Source: a virus. From it: 42,533 nt of DNA. The notes under the pieces were generated by a model. That model had not been told where the DNA came from, ran no database searches, and was given only the letters and a program-made list of their open reading frames with translations. Shown piece by piece: positions 5,358 through 40,598 of the stretch (the stretch's first letter is position 1; every line of letters starts with the position of its first letter). Made by a program: the position numbers and the translations under genes. The stretch lies in IMG/VR virus record IMGVR_UViG_3300010286_000001; one strand, given 5' to 3'.

Positions 5358-5759
5358 ATGGCTATTCTTACTTACCCCGTAACGCTGAAAACCGGTTCAG
5401 ACTACGCCTCGGCAACGAAGCTGATAGATATTAAAAGTTTTCCCGATTTAGGAGGCGCGCCGGAACAGGTTGAAAAAACAACGCTGTCCGACAGCGCTCG
5501 TACATATATAGCCGGAATCCAAGACCAGCAAGTGCTTGAGTTCACCGCAAACTTTGATAAGGACGATTTTACTGCTGTTAACGCGCTGAGCGCAGAAACC
5601 ACATTCTGGCTTGAGTTTGGTACCGGTGGCTCTAGTGGAATCTTCACATGGAAGGGTACCGCTATGGCTTACGTCAATGGCGCAGGCGTGAATGAGGTTG
5701 TCGAAATGACGGTTGTATGTACTCCGTCTACGCCCGTTACACCGTACAGCGCTACTTAA
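5358..5759 (+). CDS. Major tail protein
   Basis: 133 aa, beta-rich, strong RBS (acaggaggtaaaaac), located immediately before the chaperone pair. Confidence 0.75.
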   Translation: MAILTYPVTLKTGSDYASATKLIDIKSFPDLGGAPEQVEKTTLSDSARTYIAGIQDQQVLEFTANFDKDDFTAVNALSAETTFWLEFGTGGSSGIFTWKGTAMAYVNGAGVNEVVEMTVVCTPSTPVTPYSAT

Positions 5760-5774
5760 TTAGGAGGTTAAATC

Positions 5775-6110
5775 GTGGGTAAATCTATCACTCTTACGGA
5801 CAAGAAATCAGGCAAGGTATATACGCTAGAGTTTAATCGTAAGGCAATCGAATTGATGGAGCGACAAGGTTTCGTGTCGTCCGAAATTACAGAGAAGCCC
5901 GCCACCATGCTGCCGATGCTGTTCAGGGGCGCGTTTCTCATGCACCACCCGAATGTAAGGCGCGACGTGATTGATGCACTGTACGATGCGATACCTGACA
6001 AAACGGCGCTTATTGAAAAATTGTCTGAAATGTATAGCGAGCCGCTTCTTACACTAATCAGCGACAGCGAAGCGGATTCGGGAAACGTGGAGTGGGGAGC
6101 GAACTTCTAA
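5775..6110 (+). CDS. Tail assembly chaperone (gpG-like)
   Basis: 111 aa between the major tail and tape measure genes. RBS aggagg then a GTG start. Contains the slippery heptamer near its 3' end. Confidence 0.75.
   Translation: MGKSITLTDKKSGKVYTLEFNRKAIELMERQGFVSSEITEKPATMLPMLFRGAFLMHHPNVRRDVIDALYDAIPDKTALIEKLSEMYSEPLLTLISDSEADSGNVEWGANF
6080..6086 (+). promoter_or_regulatory. -1 programmed ribosomal frameshift slippery site G_GGA_AAC
   Basis: GGGAAAC is phased X_XXY_YYZ in the zero frame of 5775-6110. The -1 frame stays open from here to 6556. Confidence 0.75.
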
Positions 6111-32813: not shown

Positions 32814-33116
32814 ATGAAAAATGAGCCGATACCAACCGACCTACGCGAAATCGATTTGCTCACATATTACGCTCTGTCATACATCTACAAGCTGTATCGT
32901 GATGGCGTAATCGACCGTAGCAGTGGGAGCCGGTTAAAACAATCCATCTTACATGCTTACGAAACAGCTACGGCGATCCGCACCAAGCATAGCAACATGT
33001 GGGCGCGAATCGAACAGGCCGCAACGAACTATTCGCACACACCTACGCTCGATAACGCAGACAAATTCTACGCGGCGGTTTATGGGTTGCCGGATGATTG
33101 GAGGGTGAAACGATAA
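32814..33116 (+). CDS. Hypothetical protein (frame open upstream to 32763; possible ATC 32778 start after a strong SD)
   Basis: 100-aa ORF. ATG 32814 has no SD, whereas aaggggggtg sits 5 nt before the in-frame ATC 32778. Confidence 0.5.
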   Translation: MKNEPIPTDLREIDLLTYYALSYIYKLYRDGVIDRSSGSRLKQSILHAYETATAIRTKHSNMWARIEQAATNYSHTPTLDNADKFYAAVYGLPDDWRVKR

Positions 33117-33117
33117 T

Positions 33118-33318
33118 ATGATGTTGTTAGACAAACCATTTACAAAAGAAGAAATCCGCAACACCCTAGATATGCTTGATGGTAATATTTCAAGAATTTG
33201 CGTTAGTGACAATGCAGAAGAAATTGTCCGTTCACTTGGATTTGCAATCAATCGACTTTCTATGATTGCCTATAGCAGAGTAAAACAATTATCTGTAAAT
33301 AAGGAAGAATCTAATTAA
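33118..33318 (+). CDS. Hypothetical protein
   Basis: 66 aa; ATG 1 nt after the previous stop. Confidence 0.5.
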   Translation: MMLLDKPFTKEEIRNTLDMLDGNISRICVSDNAEEIVRSLGFAINRLSMIAYSRVKQLSVNKEESN

Positions 33319-33358
33319 GGTTAACGCCAGCAAATTATGAGTCTTGGAAGGTGAAATA

Positions 33359-33541
33359 ATGCCAATAACTCTTTGCATCCAACCGTATTGTTAGGACTGT
33401 GACGAGTTTGAGCCAGTTGTTGGTAAAATCTACGAAAGGAGATGTGACGGAACACAAAGTGTTATTACAAACATTATTTGCACGCATGACGCGAGATGTG
33501 AGCACATCTACAAGTATATGAAAGCGAGGGAGAGTACATAA
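33359..33541 (+). pseudogene. Cys-rich small ORF with an in-frame TAG at 33392-33394
   Basis: Good RBS (ggaaggtga). MPITLCIQPYC-TAG-DCDEFEPVVGKIYERRCDGTQSVITNIICTHDARCEHIYKYMKAREST. There is no alternative start after the TAG. Confidence 0.3.
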
Positions 33542-33715
33542 TGCCACCCACTCTTACGCGCTCAAAAGCAATCCGCGCAAAAATGTATCGACTGTATGTG
33601 CGGTAACAAAGCCGAGGTTCGCCGCTGTCCTGCTCAGAATTGCCCGCTTTTTCCGTACAGATTAGGGCGATACGATAAGAGCCTATACAAAGATATACCC
33701 GAACAAGATGAGTGA
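33541..33715 (+). pseudogene. Small Cys-rich protein (AIRAKCIDCMCG...RRCPAQNCPLFPYRLG family) broken by one extra A in an A5 run (33579-33583)
   Basis: MPPTLTRSKAIRAK in frame 1, then CIDCMCGNKAEVRRCPAQNCPLFPYRLGRYDKSLYKDIPEQDE in the +1 frame. Removing one A joins them. Confidence 0.5.
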
Positions 33716-33756
33716 AAAAACCACGCAAAATATGATGTTTTTGGAGGTTAGATTGA

Positions 33757-34380
33757 ATGACTGATGCAACCCCTAAGAAACGAGGCAGACCGCCGAAAAA
33801 GATTGAAGCAGACACAGCCGAAGAAGCTGTTGTAAAAGATGTTGTTCTAAAAGGTCGCGGCGGCATAAACAACTTTGGAAACAATATGAAAGAGTTAGTA
33901 AAAACCGAGGCCCAACGCGCGATAGCAAAACAACTTCTCACCGAAACGCTTAACGCCTATCAACAGCCAAAGGTTAAGAACGACGAAGAACTCGCACAGC
34001 GAATAAACGACTATTTCTCATATTGCGCCGACACAGGACAGATACCCACGGTCGAGGAAATGGCGCTGTCTACAGGCTACGCTGTATCGACTGTTTGGGA
34101 TTGGGAACATGGGAGGCGGCAGGGATTCAGCCCAGAGACCGCCGAGATTATAAAAAAAGCCAAGAGTTTTATGCAAACTTTTGACGCAAAATTGGTCACT
34201 ACGGGCGCACTCAACTTCCTTACATACTGCTTCAGAGCCAAGAACTACTACGGCATGGTCGAGCGTTCGGAGGTCGTTCTCACCCCCAACCAACCCCTCG
34301 GCTCCGATGCCGACCCCGCAACTATCGCGCAGAAGTACAAGCAGTTGCCGGATGTAACTATTGATGCGGAGGGCGAGTAA
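33757..34380 (+). CDS. terS: Terminase small subunit (gp3-package-like)
   Basis: Basic N-terminus KKRGRPPKK, then INDYFSYCADTGQIPTVEEMALSTGYAVSTVWDWEHG and LNFLTYCFRAKNYYGMVERSE, typical of this TerS family. Confidence 0.75.
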   Translation: MTDATPKKRGRPPKKIEADTAEEAVVKDVVLKGRGGINNFGNNMKELVKTEAQRAIAKQLLTETLNAYQQPKVKNDEELAQRINDYFSYCADTGQIPTVEEMALSTGYAVSTVWDWEHGRRQGFSPETAEIIKKAKSFMQTFDAKLVTTGALNFLTYCFRAKNYYGMVERSEVVLTPNQPLGSDADPATIAQKYKQLPDVTIDAEGE

Positions 34381-34542
34381 CTTTTATCCAGCTTTTCTAC
34401 AACTTTCGCGCCAAAACATCTGCAACTTTTCCGCAACTATGTAACTTTTATCCGCAATTTCAAGTAACTTTTCTGGGCTTGTCCAACTTTTATGTAACTT
34501 TTCTCTGTAACTTTGCTCCAAGCTTGTCCAACTTTTATGTAA
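34377..34542. repeat. Cluster of GTAACTTT(T) direct repeats and two 22-bp repeats directly after terS (candidate pac / TerS-binding region or island boundary)
   Basis: gtaacttttatcc at 34377 and 34441. gtaacttttct at 34464 and 34493. gtaactttg at 34507. gcttgtccaacttttatgtaac at 34477 and 34521. Confidence 0.7.
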
Positions 34543-34815
34543 CGAATCCTCGTCCCCTACGCTCCTGCTCCAGCACGAAAAAACCGCCTTGGCCTCCGTC
34601 GTTGGAAGCTGGGGCGGTCTGTTTTATCCCCTACGCTCAATCGTGGGGCGCGGGGCCGCGTCGTTTCGTTCTGAGCCGCTACGTTTCGTTTTGGGCGCGT
34701 TTTGTGCGTACCCTATATTGATATACCCTAGCATAGTAAAATCGTTTATACGGCGTTCTGGCGCATTATACGGCTATGTGCTATAAAACGGCCCTGCTCC
34801 ACGTTGCGCGTAGCA

Positions 34816-34851
34816 GGACAAAAAGAAGCGCCCCGGATATTGCCGGAGCGC
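34816..34851 (-). terminator. Rho-independent terminator closing the antisense island operon
   Basis: The minus strand reads gcgctccgg-caatat-ccggggcgc followed by ttcttttt, 7 nt after the peptide stop. Confidence 0.6.
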
Positions 34852-34857
34852 CTGGCG

Positions 34858-34926
34858 TTATTGTTTTTTGACGAGCGCCGCCAATACGAAGACGACGAAC
34901 AACGGTATTATTAGTAGTAGCTGCAT
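34858..34926 (-). CDS. 22-aa hydrophobic peptide MQLLLIIPLFVVFVLAALVKKQ (type I toxin-like or small membrane peptide)
   Basis: A single TM-length hydrophobic run with a basic tail, immediately followed by a terminator. The weakness is the nearest SD (gggggaga), which is about 24 nt upstream. Confidence 0.35.
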   Translation of the reverse strand: MQLLLIIPLFVVFVLAALVKKQ

Positions 34927-34967
34927 ACATTACACGCTTTGCAGTCGTACTCTCCCCCCTATCAATA

Positions 34968-35147
34968 TCAATACACCATTACCAGATCGTCTATGTCGTA
35001 CCCGTCGCCGTTCTGGAAATCTTCCTCTGTGCGCATGATTTTAATGTCCATTAGCGCGCAGGCTTCCTCGATTATCATGCTACGGTTGGTGATAATTTCG
35101 GCCAGGACTTCGCCGGTTGACTTCTGGATGATTTTCATGTTCTTCAT
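34968..35147 (-). CDS. Hypothetical 59-aa acidic protein (below the ORF-track cutoff)
   Basis: RBS gggagaaagga; MKNMKIIQKSTGEVLAEIITNRSMIIEEACALMDIKIMRTEEDFQNGDGYDIDDLVMVY. Confidence 0.5.
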   Translation of the reverse strand: MKNMKIIQKSTGEVLAEIITNRSMIIEEACALMDIKIMRTEEDFQNGDGYDIDDLVMVY

Positions 35148-35211
35148 TCCTTTCTCCCGCCTTTAGCCGGGCGGGGCGGCGTGTCAGTTATTGTCATTAT
35201 ACTCTAGGCCG

Positions 35212-35484
35212 TCAGTCGCGCCAAAGCTCTAGGCTGTCGGCCGATGGTAGCCATTCAAGGCCCCATATTTCGTCGCCCCACGCGATCGCAATCGATTCAA
35301 TGGCGCTGGCTAGGCCGCCTCCATATGCGCCACTGACCTCTGTGTCCTCCTCGGTGCCATTTGGCAGCAGGCCCACGATGTGCCAGCGGGTGCCATAGTC
35401 CGGGTGGTGCTCCTGCTCGGCCATCAATATGATGCGTCCTACGTCTCCGTCGCCCTCGATTGTTGCTAGATACCGTTTCTCCAT
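35212..35484 (-). CDS. Hypothetical acidic protein (island gene)
   Basis: 90 aa; RBS aaaaaggagg. Confidence 0.6.
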   Translation of the reverse strand: MEKRYLATIEGDGDVGRIILMAEQEHHPDYGTRWHIVGLLPNGTEEDTEVSGAYGGGLASAIESIAIAWGDEIWGLEWLPSADSLELWRD

Positions 35485-35524
35485 TGTTCAAATCCTCCTT
35501 TTTTGATGGATAATGTCAACTACG

Positions 35525-35603
35525 TTATATTTGACAACCTGCCCGGCGGTATACCGGGCAACGCTTGCGGCTTAATGTCCTATTTATAGCCGCCGCAACG
35601 GCT
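35525..35603. repeat. 79-bp perfect intergenic repeat, copy 1
   Basis: ttatatttgacaacctgcccggcggtataccgggcaacgcttgcggcttaatgtcctatttatagccgccgcaacggct is identical to 36471-36549. Confidence 0.95.
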
Positions 35604-36277
35604 CAATCCATGAGTTTGTAATCGGTCACTATATGTTCGCCGTCATACAAATAGATTTCCAATTCGTCCGGCTTGCAACCGTAACAGTCCGCTAAATATT
35701 TGCGTAATGTTTCGCCTTCTTGCCACCGAATAGTGTCGGGAACATAATATCCGTAACAATCGTCAATACAAAATTCTGTCCCACAACCTAACCAGAATTT
35801 GCCTATTTCGTCTATATGTTCCGGTGTATAATGCTTGGTACAATACACCACATCGCAATAATCCCCTTGAGAATATCCGGTGAATGATTTTACTTCCCAT
35901 TTTTCGCCGGTCGTGATTGTCAGAAATTCTGCAATAAAGCCCGGATCGTAAGGATTCGCATACTCCGTCCATTCTTTCAATAAGTGACATCTGCGGCTTG
36001 TATATGGAATAGCGTTATCTTCCATAACTTCTTTATATGTTGTGTATCCGTTTGTCCATTTGTCGCTTACATCGCGAAAACCGTCAATAATAGCTTTTGC
36101 TTTTTCTTCAATTTCTTCGTATTCTTCTATATTGAAGCCGCCATACCTTCTTCTGTCCCCTGGTACGATGTAAACAGCGCAATTCTCACCTCCCGCGCTT
36201 TTCAGTCCGTCGTCGTCGAAATAATAACTAAAATCCACATGGTTCGGATTAACTTCTTTGGCTATTATCTTTTTCAT
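35603..36277 (-). CDS. Hypothetical acidic Tyr/Cys-rich protein (island gene, 224 aa)
   Basis: ORF track; the start overlaps the upstream gene end; I do not recognise a family. Confidence 0.7.
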   Translation of the reverse strand: MKKIIAKEVNPNHVDFSYYFDDDGLKSAGGENCAVYIVPGDRRRYGGFNIEEYEEIEEKAKAIIDGFRDVSDKWTNGYTTYKEVMEDNAIPYTSRRCHLLKEWTEYANPYDPGFIAEFLTITTGEKWEVKSFTGYSQGDYCDVVYCTKHYTPEHIDEIGKFWLGCGTEFCIDDCYGYYVPDTIRWQEGETLRKYLADCYGCKPDELEIYLYDGEHIVTDYKLMD

Positions 36278-36458
36278 GGTTAAACCTCCTTTTTTCCCTA
36301 TGCTTTTCTAGACGGTAACACCCGCCGCCGTTCTCCCTGTACTCTTTCAATCTTTGTTTAGCTTCTTTGAGTGTGTACTCACTACATTCACACTCCCAAC
36401 CATAGCCGTAATTACCCATAATGTCCCAGCGGTCAACCGTTTTTCTAACGTATGCCAT
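36249..36458 (-). CDS. Hypothetical small protein with a WDIMGNYGYGWECE motif (island gene)
   Basis: 69 aa; RBS aaggagg. Confidence 0.6.
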   Translation of the reverse strand: MAYVRKTVDRWDIMGNYGYGWECECSEYTLKEAKQRLKEYRENGGGCYRLEKHREKRRFNHEKDNSQRS

Positions 36459-36470
36459 TATTACACCTCC

Positions 36471-36549
36471 TTATATTTGACAACCTGCCCGGCGGTATAC
36501 CGGGCAACGCTTGCGGCTTAATGTCCTATTTATAGCCGCCGCAACGGCT
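36471..36549. repeat. 79-bp perfect intergenic repeat, copy 2
   Basis: Identical to 35525-35603. As in copy 1, it begins on the minus strand at the last base of the preceding gene's stop codon. Confidence 0.95.
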
Positions 36550-36917
36550 TAAACGGTTTTTTCCTTCTTGATGATATAATCCGCGCCGTTAAAGATAAAA
36601 TGTATTTCCCCGCTGAGCGGATGCTCTCCGCAATAACGGACGGTGTGCGCAAGCTCTCCATTTTCAAAGAATAAATAGTCATTAGCTTCAATGTTTTCAA
36701 TTATTGGTTCATCGTTCATAAGGTAATAATCATATTGTGCTTCATAAGTCTTCTGCAGTTCTTCCGGCGTGTCATATTCTGCTATCCCAGTTATAAAATC
36801 ATCCGGCGACATAAGGCTTAACATAAATTCCCGGTGTGCTTCAATGGCTTTTCTTTTCGCTTTTTCGCTAAGCTCTGAGAATGAATAAAGTTTAATAGTA
36901 ATTCCCGTATCTATCAT
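36549..36917 (-). CDS. Hypothetical acidic protein (island gene, 122 aa)
   Basis: RBS aaggagg; KLYSFSELSEKAKRKAIEAHREF N-terminus. Confidence 0.7.
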   Translation of the reverse strand: MIDTGITIKLYSFSELSEKAKRKAIEAHREFMLSLMSPDDFITGIAEYDTPEELQKTYEAQYDYYLMNDEPIIENIEANDYLFFENGELAHTVRYCGEHPLSGEIHFIFNGADYIIKKEKTV

Positions 36918-37001
36918 TCTTTTAACCTCCTTATTTAGCTTGTCGGGCTATCGGAGCTTGTGACCGTCTGCCCGGCCGCATTACCGGCCCGATGCGGGCC
37001 G

Positions 37002-37241
37002 TCACTCTGCGATTTCTCCCCGCTGCCGGTGCTGTTTGTGCTCGTCGCATATTTGGCGGCATATCTCCAGCGCGCCCCTGCCTGCATACATGCCGTCAAG
37101 GGCGATCCATTCCCCTTTTTTGCCATCGGGGAGGAAATAGGGAGTCCAACCTTGATAATATGTGTATCTCCCCGCGATTGCATATCGTCCATCTGTGGAC
37201 ATGCGGAGCTGCGCGTGGATTTTTTCCCATTTCAGTTTCAT
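37002..37241 (-). CDS. Hypothetical protein (island gene, 79 aa)
   Basis: ATGA overlap with the upstream gene stop. Confidence 0.55.
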   Translation of the reverse strand: MKLKWEKIHAQLRMSTDGRYAIAGRYTYYQGWTPYFLPDGKKGEWIALDGMYAGRGALEICRQICDEHKQHRQRGEIAE

Positions 37242-37666
37242 TTGTCTTGCTCCTTCCTTCCATCACTCTGCTTTTCCGCAATGGCTTTTAATATTTCGGC
37301 GTTTGTCTCTTCGTTCGCTTGATTGTTCCAGTTTTCCTCCCATGCTTCGATGCCGTCCATCATTTCAAATAAAACCTCTTCGCCGATAATGTAGTAGAGC
37401 ATGTTAACGAGTTTTTCCGGGTCGCTTAGGTCTGTATAGATTTCGCCGAAGTTGTCTTTTTCGTAGGTCTGTACTTTTTCTATGGCTTCGAATACGTCGT
37501 ACTCCCGCAGGGCTTCTTTAGCCCGATGTGTGCCGATGATATAATAGTCCGTGTTAAACACTTCGTTGTGTAGGTCGCAATAATACCCGGTATAACCATC
37601 TTCTAACGCTTCTATTATGGCGGCTCTTGCTTCTTCTCTCATTTTCTGCTCTTTGTGGTTTGTCAT
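37238..37666 (-). CDS. Hypothetical acidic protein, first gene of the island operon (start moved to ATG 37666)
   Basis: MTNHKEQKMREE... is preceded by agggagaaag. The ORF-track start at 37732 lies upstream of the predicted -10 box. Confidence 0.65.
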   Translation of the reverse strand: MTNHKEQKMREEARAAIIEALEDGYTGYYCDLHNEVFNTDYYIIGTHRAKEALREYDVFEAIEKVQTYEKDNFGEIYTDLSDPEKLVNMLYYIIGEEVLFEMMDGIEAWEENWNNQANEETNAEILKAIAEKQSDGRKEQDK

Positions 37667-37722
37667 TGTTCTTTCTCCCTTCGTTCCCGCCGTGCGGCGG
37701 TCGTTTTTTTGTTTGCGGTTAT

Positions 37723-37751
37723 AGTATAACACACTTACAGTTAATTGTCAA
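37723..37751 (-). promoter_or_regulatory. Island operon promoter TTGACA-17-TATACT
   Basis: The reverse complement reads TTGACAattaactgtaagtgtgtTATACT, which matches the recombinase promoter at 23 of 29 positions. Confidence 0.65.
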
Positions 37752-37807
37752 TAGTTTTTGTAAAATAATTTCTTGATTTTTTGTAATTATCGAGTTATTG
37801 TTGCCCG

Positions 37808-37880
37808 CCGGCCTGCCTGGCCTGCCTGGCCTCCTGGCCTGCCTGGCCTCCTGGCCTGCCTGGCCTGCCTGGCCTCCCCC
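37808..37880. repeat. GC-rich tandem repeat of alternating 9-mers GGCCTGCCT and 8-mers GGCCTCCT (about 8 units)
   Basis: ggcctgcct ggcctgcct ggcctcct ggcctgcct ggcctcct ggcctgcct ggcctgcct ggcctcccccc, embedded in otherwise AT-rich promoter DNA. Confidence 0.9.
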
Positions 37881-37967
37881 CGTGGGGGATATGCCGCCGC
37901 CCCTGCCGGGCCGGTTAGGCGTTTAACTACCGAAAATAAGAAAAAGGGGTAAAATTACAAAAAACCC

Positions 37968-37996
37968 TTGACAATTACAATAACGTGTGTTATATT
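37968..37996 (+). promoter_or_regulatory. Recombinase promoter TTGACA-17-TATATT
   Basis: TTGACAattacaataacgtgtgtTATATT, then RBS aaaggagg and ATG 38026. Confidence 0.65.
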
Positions 37997-38025
37997 GTTT
38001 TTGTAATCAAAAGGAGGCGCGAGAT

Positions 38026-38778
38026 ATGAATCAAGCAATCGGATATTTGAGGGTATCGACCGATGGTCAGGTCGGCGAAGATAAATACGGGCTGGACGCT
38101 CAGCGGGAGCAGATTAAGCTGTACGCTTTGGCGAACGGATATGAGATAGTTGAGTGGGCGAAGGACGAGGGGTATAGCGGGGCCACGCTGGACAGGCCTG
38201 CGTTGAACGAGTTGCTGTACGGCGATATAGCGAACCCGCCCATTTCGGCTGTGATTGTGGCTAAGAATGACAGAATTAGCCGAGATATGGAGCAGTATTT
38301 TTATGTCAAATACTCGCTCAAGAAGAAGAACATTGATTTAAAGAGTGTTAGCGAGGATTTCGGGCAGCTTGGGGTGTTCGCGCATATTATGGAGAGCCTT
38401 GCAATGTTTATTGCGGAGCAGGAGCGGATCAACATTGCGAAACGCACCAGTGGCGGGCGCAAAATCAAGGCTGCCGCGGGCGGATACAGTGGCGGACGCG
38501 CGCCGTATGGGTATAAGGTGGAGAACGGCCAATATGTTATAATGCCCGAGGAGGCCGAGATGGTGCGCAAGGTATTCGAGATGCTGGATAATGGCGCAAC
38601 GCTGGTAGATACGGCCGAGTGGCTGAATGATAATGGATATAGGACTCGCAGTGGCAAGAAGTTTTATGCGTCGCATATAAGGGCGATCAAGGCAAATCGC
38701 CCGCTGTATGAAGGCATGTATAAGTATGGGGATATGGACTGGGTGCGCGGTGTGCACGAACCGATATTAAAGGGGTGA
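38026..38778 (+). CDS. Truncated large-serine-recombinase-type protein (resolvase catalytic domain plus recombinase domain; no zinc-ribbon or coiled-coil domain)
   Basis: MNQAIGYLRVSTDGQ (catalytic Ser), VIVAKNDRISRD, then GGRAPYGYKV...Y.G...W..GVHEPIL, after which the ORF stops. 251 aa from ATG 38026. Confidence 0.8.
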   Translation: MNQAIGYLRVSTDGQVGEDKYGLDAQREQIKLYALANGYEIVEWAKDEGYSGATLDRPALNELLYGDIANPPISAVIVAKNDRISRDMEQYFYVKYSLKKKNIDLKSVSEDFGQLGVFAHIMESLAMFIAEQERINIAKRTSGGRKIKAAAGGYSGGRAPYGYKVENGQYVIMPEEAEMVRKVFEMLDNGATLVDTAEWLNDNGYRTRSGKKFYASHIRAIKANRPLYEGMYKYGDMDWVRGVHEPILKG

Positions 38779-38939
38779 TTAATATTACTGCTTTTGCAGG
38801 GCATATATTCAATGCCATTTTTCGCTCGATTATATGAGACTCAGAGAGGGTCTATAACAAGTTTTCTGAGATATTAAATATATATTAAATCTATTCGAGC
38901 GCCAAGAGCGCCTTTCCACAAGGAGGGGCGTTCTTTTTT

Positions 38940-40598
38940 ATGGATATAGAGCAGACGTTAAAGGCGATACGAGCCTTCATAGACAAAAAACCGGAGTTTG
39001 AAGCGTATCAGGACTACTTCGATATGCTTCGGGCGCTGGGTGAGACTGACCGTGCGAAGGCTGATGAGCACAATTTGTGGCTCCGAAGGGAGACTACGCG
39101 GCGCTGCAAAGAGGCCACAGACCCGAACGTGGTGACGGACTTCTACAATTTGACCTACAAGACATACCTGTACGGTGCGCAGACCTCGTTTGACGACTAC
39201 ATGGTAGCTGTCGAATGGGATAGGGAGCCAAAGGCGAAGTTTTGGGTTCCGCGCCGGAAGGTGCTGGAGGGGCAGCACAAAATAGCCAGTAAGATACAGG
39301 CGTTTTTGGACGATGAAAATGCGCTGTTTTTGGCGTTCTCGATGCCTCCTGGCACCGGAAAGACGACGCTGATTAAGTTTTTGCTGTCGTACATCTACGG
39401 GCAGTATCCGAACAGCGCGAACATGTATGTCAGCTACGCAGACGCGATGGTGAAGATGGTTTACGACGGCGTGCAATCCATCTTGACTGATAATTTCGAG
39501 TACAAGTTCAAGGATGTATTCCCCGAAGTGCCTGCTCCTGTATGCTCTGCGGAGTATTACACTATTTCAGCGCGTAGGAAAGGCGATTTCCCGACGTTGG
39601 GGCTTATTTCCCTGGGCGGTTCGGTTACTGGCCGTACCCGTGCGAACAAACTGCTGATTACTGACGACCTTGTGAAGAACAAGGAGGTCGCCCGTAGCCC
39701 CGAACGGCTGAATACGCTGTTTGAGGACTACAAGGCGACGATTACGACTCGTACAATCGGCGACAATGTGAAGCAGATTATGCTTGGCACGATTTGGTCG
39801 GCACATGACCCGATTTCGCGCATGAAGAGCGAACACAATGGAGACCCGCGGTACATCTTCATCGCGCTGCCTGTTCGTGACGAGGACGGGCATAGCAATT
39901 TCAATTACGACCACCCGGACAGATATACGGATGAGCGCATCGCTGAGCTTGAGGCTACACTTGATCCAGTTGATTTCTCGTGCCTATATATGCAGAAAGG
40001 CATTGAAAAAGAGGGCTTGGCATTCCCGGCAGATGCCTTGGATTACTATGAAGGCGAGCTGCCGGATGGAGAGCCTGACAATATCATTTTCTATGCTGAC
40101 GTGGCATTCGGCGGAGGCGATAGCTTTTCAATGCCGATTGCCTACATTTACGGAAAAGACGTGTACATACACGATGTAATATTCGACCGTGGCGACAAAA
40201 CAGTTACTATGCCGCGAGTAGTTGAGAAAATCCTGAAGCACAAGATCAGGATTGGTCAGTTTGAGGCGAACAATGGCGGTGATTTCTATTGCGAGGAGGT
40301 AAACCGCATTCTCCGCGAAAAGCACAATTACTCGATGAACCTCGGTAGCAAGAAGGCTCCGTCGAATATGAGCAAATTGTCAAGGATTGAACAGCACGCC
40401 CCGGCAATTCGGCGATTCCACTTCAGAAGCAGGAATTGCAGGGATGCTGACTACAAGAAATTCATGGACGAGCTGACCTCGTTCAGTTTCACAGCGAAGA
40501 ACCTGCATGACGACGCGGCAGACTCCCTCGCGGGGCTTGCGGACAAACTCTATCATGGCACATTATCTTGGGTTGAAATCGGCAAACGCCCGTGGTGA
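38940..40598 (+). CDS. terL: Terminase large subunit
   Basis: Walker A SMPPGTGKTT, Walker B LLITDDLV, C-terminal nuclease motifs ADVAFGGGDSFS and HDDAADSL. Confidence 0.9.
   Translation: MDIEQTLKAIRAFIDKKPEFEAYQDYFDMLRALGETDRAKADEHNLWLRRETTRRCKEATDPNVVTDFYNLTYKTYLYGAQTSFDDYMVAVEWDREPKAKFWVPRRKVLEGQHKIASKIQAFLDDENALFLAFSMPPGTGKTTLIKFLLSYIYGQYPNSANMYVSYADAMVKMVYDGVQSILTDNFEYKFKDVFPEVPAPVCSAEYYTISARRKGDFPTLGLISLGGSVTGRTRANKLLITDDLVKNKEVARSPERLNTLFEDYKATITTRTIGDNVKQIMLGTIWSAHDPISRMKSEHNGDPRYIFIALPVRDEDGHSNFNYDHPDRYTDERIAELEATLDPVDFSCLYMQKGIEKEGLAFPADALDYYEGELPDGEPDNIIFYADVAFGGGDSFSMPIAYIYGKDVYIHDVIFDRGDKTVTMPRVVEKILKHKIRIGQFEANNGGDFYCEEVNRILREKHNYSMNLGSKKAPSNMSKLSRIEQHAPAIRRFHFRSRNCRDADYKKFMDELTSFSFTAKNLHDDAADSLAGLADKLYHGTLSWVEIGKRPW

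Follow-up and report, generated by a model that had tools for sequence, protein, structure and literature searches.

The 42,533-bp virus contig IMGVR_UViG_3300010286_000001, which we analyzed in its entirety and refer to as the window, carries on its minus strand an operon of ~2.9 kb that is punctuated by two copies of a 79-bp repeat, each beginning at the end of a gene. Both copies contain a full-length pistol ribozyme, and a third element, closer to the start of the operon, is a type-P5 twister ribozyme, such that the transcript would carry three elements that are each predicted to cleave it. Profile matches among the proteins of the window include portal, major head, tape measure, endolysin, tyrosine integrase, primase-helicase, and large and small terminase proteins, and the window is the genome of a temperate siphovirus-like phage, relatives of which sit in Clostridia genomes. 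Relatives of g224, the protein encoded between the two repeat copies, were found in Oscillospiraceae, Dehalobacter and Eubacteriales genomes.

Read along the minus strand, the operon begins with a sigma-70-type promoter at 37723–37751 (TTGACA-17-TG-n-TATACT, with 11/12 consensus positions and an extended −10 element; a consensus match only) and ends with a terminator-like hairpin at 34826–34853 (11 pairs, 8 of them GC, then a T-run). Between this one promoter and this one terminator, the three ribozymes part the genes into blocks of 2, 1, 2 and 2. The first block comprises g142 (37238–37666), which matches phrog_10208, a family of unknown function, and was called as 142 amino acids in the ENA assembly L129, and the hypothetical gene g79 (37002–37241), the stop codon of which lies inside the twister. 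The hypothetical gene g122 (36549–36917) stands alone between the twister and the first pistol (copy A); the hypothetical gene g69 (36249–36458) is the first past that pistol and is followed by g224 (35603–36277), which encodes a widespread hypothetical protein, and by the second pistol (copy B). Two further hypothetical genes, g90 (35212–35484), the first past copy B, and g59 (34968–35147), the last that was called, complete the operon.

When we compared the window with itself, positions 35525–35603 and 36471–36549 were 100% identical across 79 bp, as an initial annotation of this sequence had claimed, and the match stretched to 82 bp (35525–35606 and 36471–36552) with a single mismatch, at the middle base of a stop codon (TGA vs TAA). 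Each of the two members of this repeat family (unit A, 36471–36552, and unit B, 35525–35606, both on the minus strand) consists of a pistol flanked by 3 nucleotides (nt) on its 5′ side, at the stop codon of g122 in unit A and of g224 in unit B, and by 8 nt on its 3′ side (AAAUAUAA) that are the same in both units. On the minus strand, each 79-bp copy does start at the last base of a stop codon, at 36549 for the TAA of the 122-amino-acid open reading frame (ORF) and at 35603 for the TGA of the 224-amino-acid ORF. The accompanying claim that each copy ends at the next ribosome-binding site held for copy A, with GGAGG at 36470–36466, but not for copy B, which ends ~25 nt short of its ribosome-binding site. 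Because the number of 79-bp repeats expected by chance in 42.5 kb is ~1e-39 (~9e8 position pairs × 4^-79), a chance origin of the repeat is excluded. Neither is it an assembly artefact, because both 79-mers recur, again 946 nt apart, in two independent metagenome assemblies (ENA ERZ27245369 and JGI 3300012949); of these, one matches the window identically across 3.2 kb, and g224 is encoded on six contigs.

Scanning the whole window with Rfam at curated thresholds gave four matches, three of which fell in this operon. The two pistols, copy A (36479–36549) and copy B (35533–35603), both on the minus strand and identical to each other, each matched RF02679 over the full model (1–68 of 68) with 67.6 bits, about twice the gathering score of 34.5. 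Relaxing the threshold to E ≤ 1 for 33000–40000 revealed no further ribozyme or Rfam family. In the alignment to RF02679, P1 is formed by AGCC/GGCU and closed by the loop GUUGCGGC, the linker is AUAAAUAG, P2 is GACA/UGUC, and P3 is a GC-rich helix of 8–9 bp, UUGCCCGG/CCGGGCAG; the UUGCGGC of the P1 loop pairs with GCCGCAA at 7/7 positions as the pseudoknot. The three pairings that the initial annotation had proposed (UUGCGGC/GCCGCAA, an AGCC/GGCU hairpin and a UGCCCGG/CCGGGCA stem) are therefore all there, and the first role on its list, an RNA processing or stability element, was the right category, with the strand, the helices including the pseudoknot, and the placement all correct. What it missed was that the repeat belongs to an already described class of self-cleaving ribozyme; its observation is confirmed and its interpretation is supported in part.

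On the 3′ side, the junction that joins P2 to P3 is 2 nt long, G36484-U36483 in copy A and G35538-U35537 in copy B. Because pistol cleavage occurs within this dinucleotide, which is usually G-U and the length of which is strictly conserved (Harris et al., 2015; PMC4604425), we predict cuts at G36484|U36483 and G35538|U35537. The equivalents of A32, G33, G40 (36510 and 35564), C41 and G42 (env25 numbering) are all in place in the pistols of the window; structural work has implicated purine-32, G33, G40, C41 and G42 in pistol catalysis (PMC6154101). This analysis establishes the identity and architecture of the ribozymes: on the minus strand, each repeat holds a full-length pistol, for which self-cleavage is predicted.

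The third ribozyme lies in the gap between g79 and g122, where the initial annotation had noted a degenerate third copy of the repeat hairpin. This supposed copy, a 71% match over 28 nt, falls within a type-P5 twister ribozyme (36951–37011, minus strand; RF02684, 52.6 bits against a gathering score of 37.6, model 1–58 of 58), the cleavage of which is predicted. Twister ribozymes cleave at a U-A step (PMC6154101), and the predicted cut, between P1 and P2, is U36983|A36982, within the UAAU at 36983–36980. The element overlaps the last codons of g79 together with its TGA stop (37004–37002) and contains a P2 of CGCA/UGCG, a GC-rich P1 hairpin, and a P4 with a conserved GUCACAAGC loop. When four related loci were compared, P1 proved to be wholly different in sequence yet paired in L003, L052 and L022 (L-numbers are our handles for loci), and the P4 pairs CGG/CCG were replaced by CUG/CAG in L052, a compensatory change. 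By inspection, the GUG of GAGUG is complementary to the CAC of UCACAAGC, and a GC to another GC, with these bases invariant in the four relatives, and GUG/CAC itself differs from the consensus GgG/CcC by a compensatory change. By the fold of this class, the GUG/CAC and GC/GC partners would be the T1 and T2 pairings, respectively, of a putative double pseudoknot between the P4 loop and the internal loops. We rejected homology between this element and the repeat: the 28-nt similarity spans different functional parts. The bases of the shared CCGGGCAG, which is part of P3 in the pistol, fall in the twister within the linker after P2 and within an extra helix around P4. The resemblance between the twister and pistol P3 is coincidental.

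Because the RF02679 covariance model leaves the pistol pseudoknot unscored, the pseudoknot offers an independent test of the assignment. We gathered pistols from viral contigs by a core pattern, obtaining 123 matches, of which 112 parsed as pistols and 93 were unique. Among the 93, pseudoknot strands paired with their own partners at 6.82/7 positions, compared with 5.14 for permuted partners (maximum 5.45 in 1000 permutations), and four pseudoknot positions each occurred as four to six standard pair types. In an alignment of 23 phage pistols, the P1 and pseudoknot columns were paired in 99.6% of cases vs 74.7% after shuffling, and had a covariation score of 0.707 vs 0.202, with 0/500 shuffles scoring as high; sliding the partners by 1–3 columns lowered pairing to 30–41%. 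Within the same 23, catalytic-core positions 33 and 40–42 were invariant and position 32 was a purine in every one. Compensatory changes set the pseudoknot of the window apart from the family consensus, and the closest relative, in L052, has GUUGCAGC/GCUGCAA where the window has GUUGCGGC/GCCGCAA, a double compensatory change. MAFFT misaligned the variable 3′ half that contains P3 and P2, and these helices were instead parsed by a script that selects for pairing; because of this selection, the P2 and P3 counts are biased and only P1 and the pseudoknot serve as tests.

Phage pistols also typically begin at, or a few bases from, an upstream stop codon. For 101 of the 112 phage pistols, a same-strand ORF ended anywhere from 25 nt inside P1 to 200 nt upstream of it. 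The median gap between ORF end and P1 was 2 nt and the commonest gap −1, at which, as in the window, the final base of the stop codon doubles as the first A of P1. This tight coupling to the end of the upstream gene fits a role in defining 3′ ends. The stop-codon-linked placement seen in the window thus generalizes in part.

Taking these results together, we consider it very likely that the two pistols and the P5 twister are co-transcribed in one phage operon and self-cleave the transcript into four mRNAs, with the uncoupling of neighboring cassettes as the likely purpose. Each ribozyme would fold during transcription and cut its own backbone by internal transesterification, the pistols at the G|U dinucleotide that links P3 to P2 and the twister at its U|A step. 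The products would be a g142–g79 mRNA of ~730 nt ending at U36983>p (where >p denotes a 2′,3′-cyclic phosphate), a g122 mRNA of 499 nt running from A36982 to G36484>p, a g69–g224 mRNA of 946 nt running from U36483 to G35538>p, and a g90–g59 mRNA of ~720 nt running from U35537 to the terminator. For both classes, cleavage would fall 1–2 nt past a GC-rich hairpin (P3 of the pistol, P1 of the twister). Each upstream mRNA would therefore have, directly after its stop codon, the compact ribozyme fold as a structured 3′ terminus that carries the cyclic phosphate. Downstream mRNAs would begin with a 5′-OH and a short leader. After pistol A this leader would be 25 nt long, with a strong Shine–Dalgarno sequence, GGAGG, 13 nt from the new 5′ end; after pistol B the freed UGUCAA (35536–35531) could pair with UUGACA (35519–35514) to form a hairpin one base from the 5′ end, for which folding of the 3′ product gave a pairing probability of 0.95. 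We infer that cleavage takes place in vivo and that it would affect mRNA stability and translation, which for adjacent gene cassettes would thereby be uncoupled. If the placement at the upstream stop codon and the cut after a GC-rich hairpin hold as patterns, they would point to a role for these ribozymes in the definition of mRNA 3′ ends and not in the regulation of downstream genes.

Several points weigh against this proposal. Many relatives of g224 have no adjoining ribozyme, and the ribozymes are therefore dispensable for g224. In Firmicutes, 5′-OH ends can be substrates of RNase J1, as with the glmS ribozyme, and for this reason the downstream fragments might be destabilized rather than protected. 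Moreover, hairpin formation at the new 5′ end was not a significant tendency among 57 pistols, for which the mean probability of pairing was 0.548 vs 0.471 with shuffled downstream sequence (Wilcoxon p = 0.067), and we accordingly rejected such a hairpin of the P2 3′ strand as a general rule, though that of copy B is strong. Finally, the purpose of self-cleaving ribozymes in bacteria and phages is described as still unknown in a review (PMC6765202).

Related loci showed a mosaic of these ribozymes and genes. The order pistol-g69-g224-pistol of the window corresponds in L003 to twister-g224-pistol-truncated g69, and L002 has g69-X-g224 with no ribozymes there, plus a twister that lacks the P1 hairpin (817–861). 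At L007 (235–262), a deletion between two ATAA repeats left only pistol P1, which runs straight into a ribosome-binding site, and at L022 (610–675) a decayed pistol has its 5′ half replaced and its 3′ end truncated. The unrelated viral contig L052 (1224–5282) has the same plan as the window with unrelated cargo genes: a divergent serine recombinase/invertase (217 amino acids), a twister-P5, one gene, a pistol, more genes and a convergent terS-like gene, a likeness that suggests that an accessory slot beside the terminase genes is conserved while its cargo is swapped. The pistol of L003 is identical to that of the window at 70/71 positions, whereas the adjoining g224 is ~77% identical; more generally, the ribozymes were 90–99% identical between loci, compared with coding DNA that was 72–82% identical or unrelated. 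Near-identical pistol pairs or series also occurred within single loci (L103, L023, L071 and L072), and L072 (306–4313) has seven pistols above the Rfam threshold in 4 kb, two of them nearly identical, a far denser array than that of the window. In these comparisons, the ribozyme behaves like a self-contained unit that is highly conserved and sits where cassettes meet. Because the ribozymes stay 90–99% identical while neighboring genes swap, and some have decayed, the perfect identity of the two pistols in the window most likely reflects a recent duplication or recombination of the ribozyme module. The nearest of the virus records searched, G001, contains no pistol, an absence that is uninformative because this record is a 66%-complete fragment, and blastn against cultured-phage records returned just one match, of 66 nt, inside a coding region. 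One related contig from metagenome 3300012949 (L005) carries, at 2667–2944 and 5746–5797, a group I intron (RF00028, 93.9 bits) and a sub-threshold twister-P1 match (49.9 vs 67.2 bits), the latter near a g224 homolog.

The same mosaicism lends some weight to an explanation that we nonetheless regard as doubtful, in which the repeats act mainly as DNA: the ribozyme sequences would be short patches of homology for cassette exchange by homologous recombination, and the 100% identity a scar of such exchange. This explanation is compatible with ribozyme activity and would accommodate the narrow bounds of the repeat, which exceeds the ribozyme by only 3 nt at the 5′ end and 8 nt at the 3′ end, as well as the shuffled orders across the window, L003 and L002, the conserved pistol beside a diverged g224 in L003, the common plan with unrelated cargo in L052, the deleted remnants in L007, L002 and L022, and the near-identical pairs within L103, L072 and L023. 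However, homology patches need no structure, and yet compensatory changes across the family maintain every helix as well as the pseudoknot, which indicates that selection acts on the RNA. Recombination, moreover, is inferred from a small sample of relatives. A recombination module for cassette shuffling had been among the roles listed in the initial annotation, and that idea is supported in part, as a side effect of a functional RNA at the DNA level: in relatives, the ribozymes are far better kept than nearby genes, and homology breakpoints lie at ribozyme edges.

A considerably less probable alternative is that the elements are shaped like ribozymes but do not cleave in vivo, acting as mere stable intercistronic hairpins that block exonucleases or insulate translation. 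Both elements do contain GC-rich hairpins, and some computationally predicted ribozymes fail to cleave in tests (PMC8782182). A plain hairpin, however, needs none of the features that are intact here, namely the catalytic-core positions, the strict 2-nt junction, the pseudoknots and scores far above threshold, and the degraded versions in L007, L002 and L022 look quite different.

We think it slightly less probable again that the 946-nt g69–g224 RNA becomes circular. According to this idea, the 5′ UUGUC of that RNA would re-pair with the P2 strand of its own 3′ pistol, and the ends would be rejoined by the pistol itself or by an RtcB-type ligase; the RNA would thereby rebuild a pistol active site from its own ends and become a circular, exonuclease-proof and translatable phage mRNA. 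Because the two pistols are identical, their P2 strands are interchangeable, and the 5′-OH and 2′,3′-cyclic phosphate ends are, according to PMC8782182, substrates for such ligation. Perreault et al. (PMC3088659) raised ligation to circular products as a possibility, but their search for circularized or spliced RNAs from clustered hammerheads found none. P2 is, in addition, merely 4 bp long, and nothing in the sequence specifically demands circularization.

Finally, we give almost no credence to the repeat being a single-stranded-DNA promoter, a protein-binding riboregulator (two roles put forward in the initial annotation that gained no support) or an unusual terminator, because, although a weak promoter-like match (9/12) overlaps the 3′ end of copy B, copy A lacks such a match, the repeat has no T-run, the plus-strand fold is unremarkable (z = −0.9), and the full-length ribozyme match accounts for every conserved base and helix.

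The seven proteins of the operon gave few clues of their own. Searches of Pfam and NCBIfam found no family for any of them, and PHROGs yielded no function; g122 had weak N-terminal matches to two PHROGs, both of unknown function, and g224 had no Pfam, NCBIfam or PHROG family and returned only "hypothetical" proteins from a large-database search. The operon is flanked by a terS-like gene on one side and by a serine recombinase gene and terL on the other. The recombinase (37987–38778, plus strand; a 263-amino-acid ORF) has only the resolvase and recombinase domains, without a zinc-ribbon/coiled-coil part, and is divergent from the ribozyme operon, with its own promoter at 37968–37996 (11/12 consensus). 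Upstream of the operon promoter, at 37803–37877, lies a GC-rich tandem repeat with a 17-nt period; the ENA assembly L129 has precisely one 17-nt unit fewer but shows no other difference in the stretch compared, and the number of copies therefore varies between samples. At the other end, a field of GTAACTTTT repeats (34379–34543) begins at the terS stop codon. In L004 (4160–4234), GTAACTTTT repeats follow the operon terminator in an orientation that is reversed relative to g224, an arrangement that could have arisen if the island was inverted with respect to the repeats. Elsewhere in the window, a full-length Skipping-rope RNA (RF02924, 45.4 bits, with the gathering score at 36.7) lies at 1226–1305 on the plus strand, just 3′ of an exonuclease-like gene (138–1166).

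Both ribozyme classes, their Firmicutes and phage habitat, and their clustering were already known, and the locus in the window adds no class. The pistol ribozyme reportedly goes back to Weinberg et al. 2015 (Nat Chem Biol 11:606), and the twister ribozyme is said to go back to Roth et al. 2014. The pistols of the window share with RF02679 the P1 helix, the pseudoknot between the P1 loop and the P2–P3 junction, P2, P3, the conserved nucleotides, the AUAAAUA linker and the 2-nt G-U junction. They also share its setting, in Firmicutes and phages near other ribozymes, the class itself having been found through its clustering near other ribozymes (PMC4604425). Nothing essential differs; the allele in the window has a long, GC-rich P3 of 8–9 bp and occurs as two identical copies 946 nt apart. 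The twister has in common with RF02684, as reviewed (PMC6154101), P1, P2, P4, the U-A step and, by inspection, putative T1/T2 complementarity. It differs in that the pair at the outer end of P4 and the one at the base of P1 are non-canonical, in that P4 is surrounded by an additional GGGC/GCCC helix, which L003 and L052 also have, and in that the ribozyme extends across the stop codon of the gene upstream.

The function of self-cleaving ribozymes in bacteria and phages has stood as an open question since 2011–2015, and the locus described here does not answer it. It does constitute a compact and clean test case, in which a single strong promoter and a single terminator enclose three ribozymes from two classes and four mRNAs of distinct sizes are predicted, to which the relatives with deleted or truncated ribozymes add value as natural "knock-outs." A useful point of reference is the glmS ribozyme, which likewise self-cleaves within an mRNA to give a downstream fragment with a 5′-OH, the fate of which is set by cellular RNases; however, glmS (reviewed in PMC6765202) uses a metabolite cofactor and acts as a feedback switch in the 5′ untranslated region, whereas pistol and twister ribozymes are constitutive and, in our case, lie between cistrons. 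Close counterparts are the ribozyme clusters of prophages, which flank single genes or short gene blocks and cleave during in vitro transcription, and which were suggested to process polycistronic RNA into gene-length mRNAs, a purpose that was unproven (Perreault et al., 2011; PMC3088659); the review likewise gives this suggestion and stresses that the purpose is unproven (PMC6765202). As in those clusters, the operon in the window has several ribozymes in one polycistronic phage transcript that bracket one or two variable genes. Whereas the prophage clusters consist of hammerheads, the window has a small cluster of three ribozymes, of the pistol and twister classes, which lie on the coding strand of a single transcription unit, bracket short blocks of genes and thereby make it a ribozyme-punctuated phage operon.

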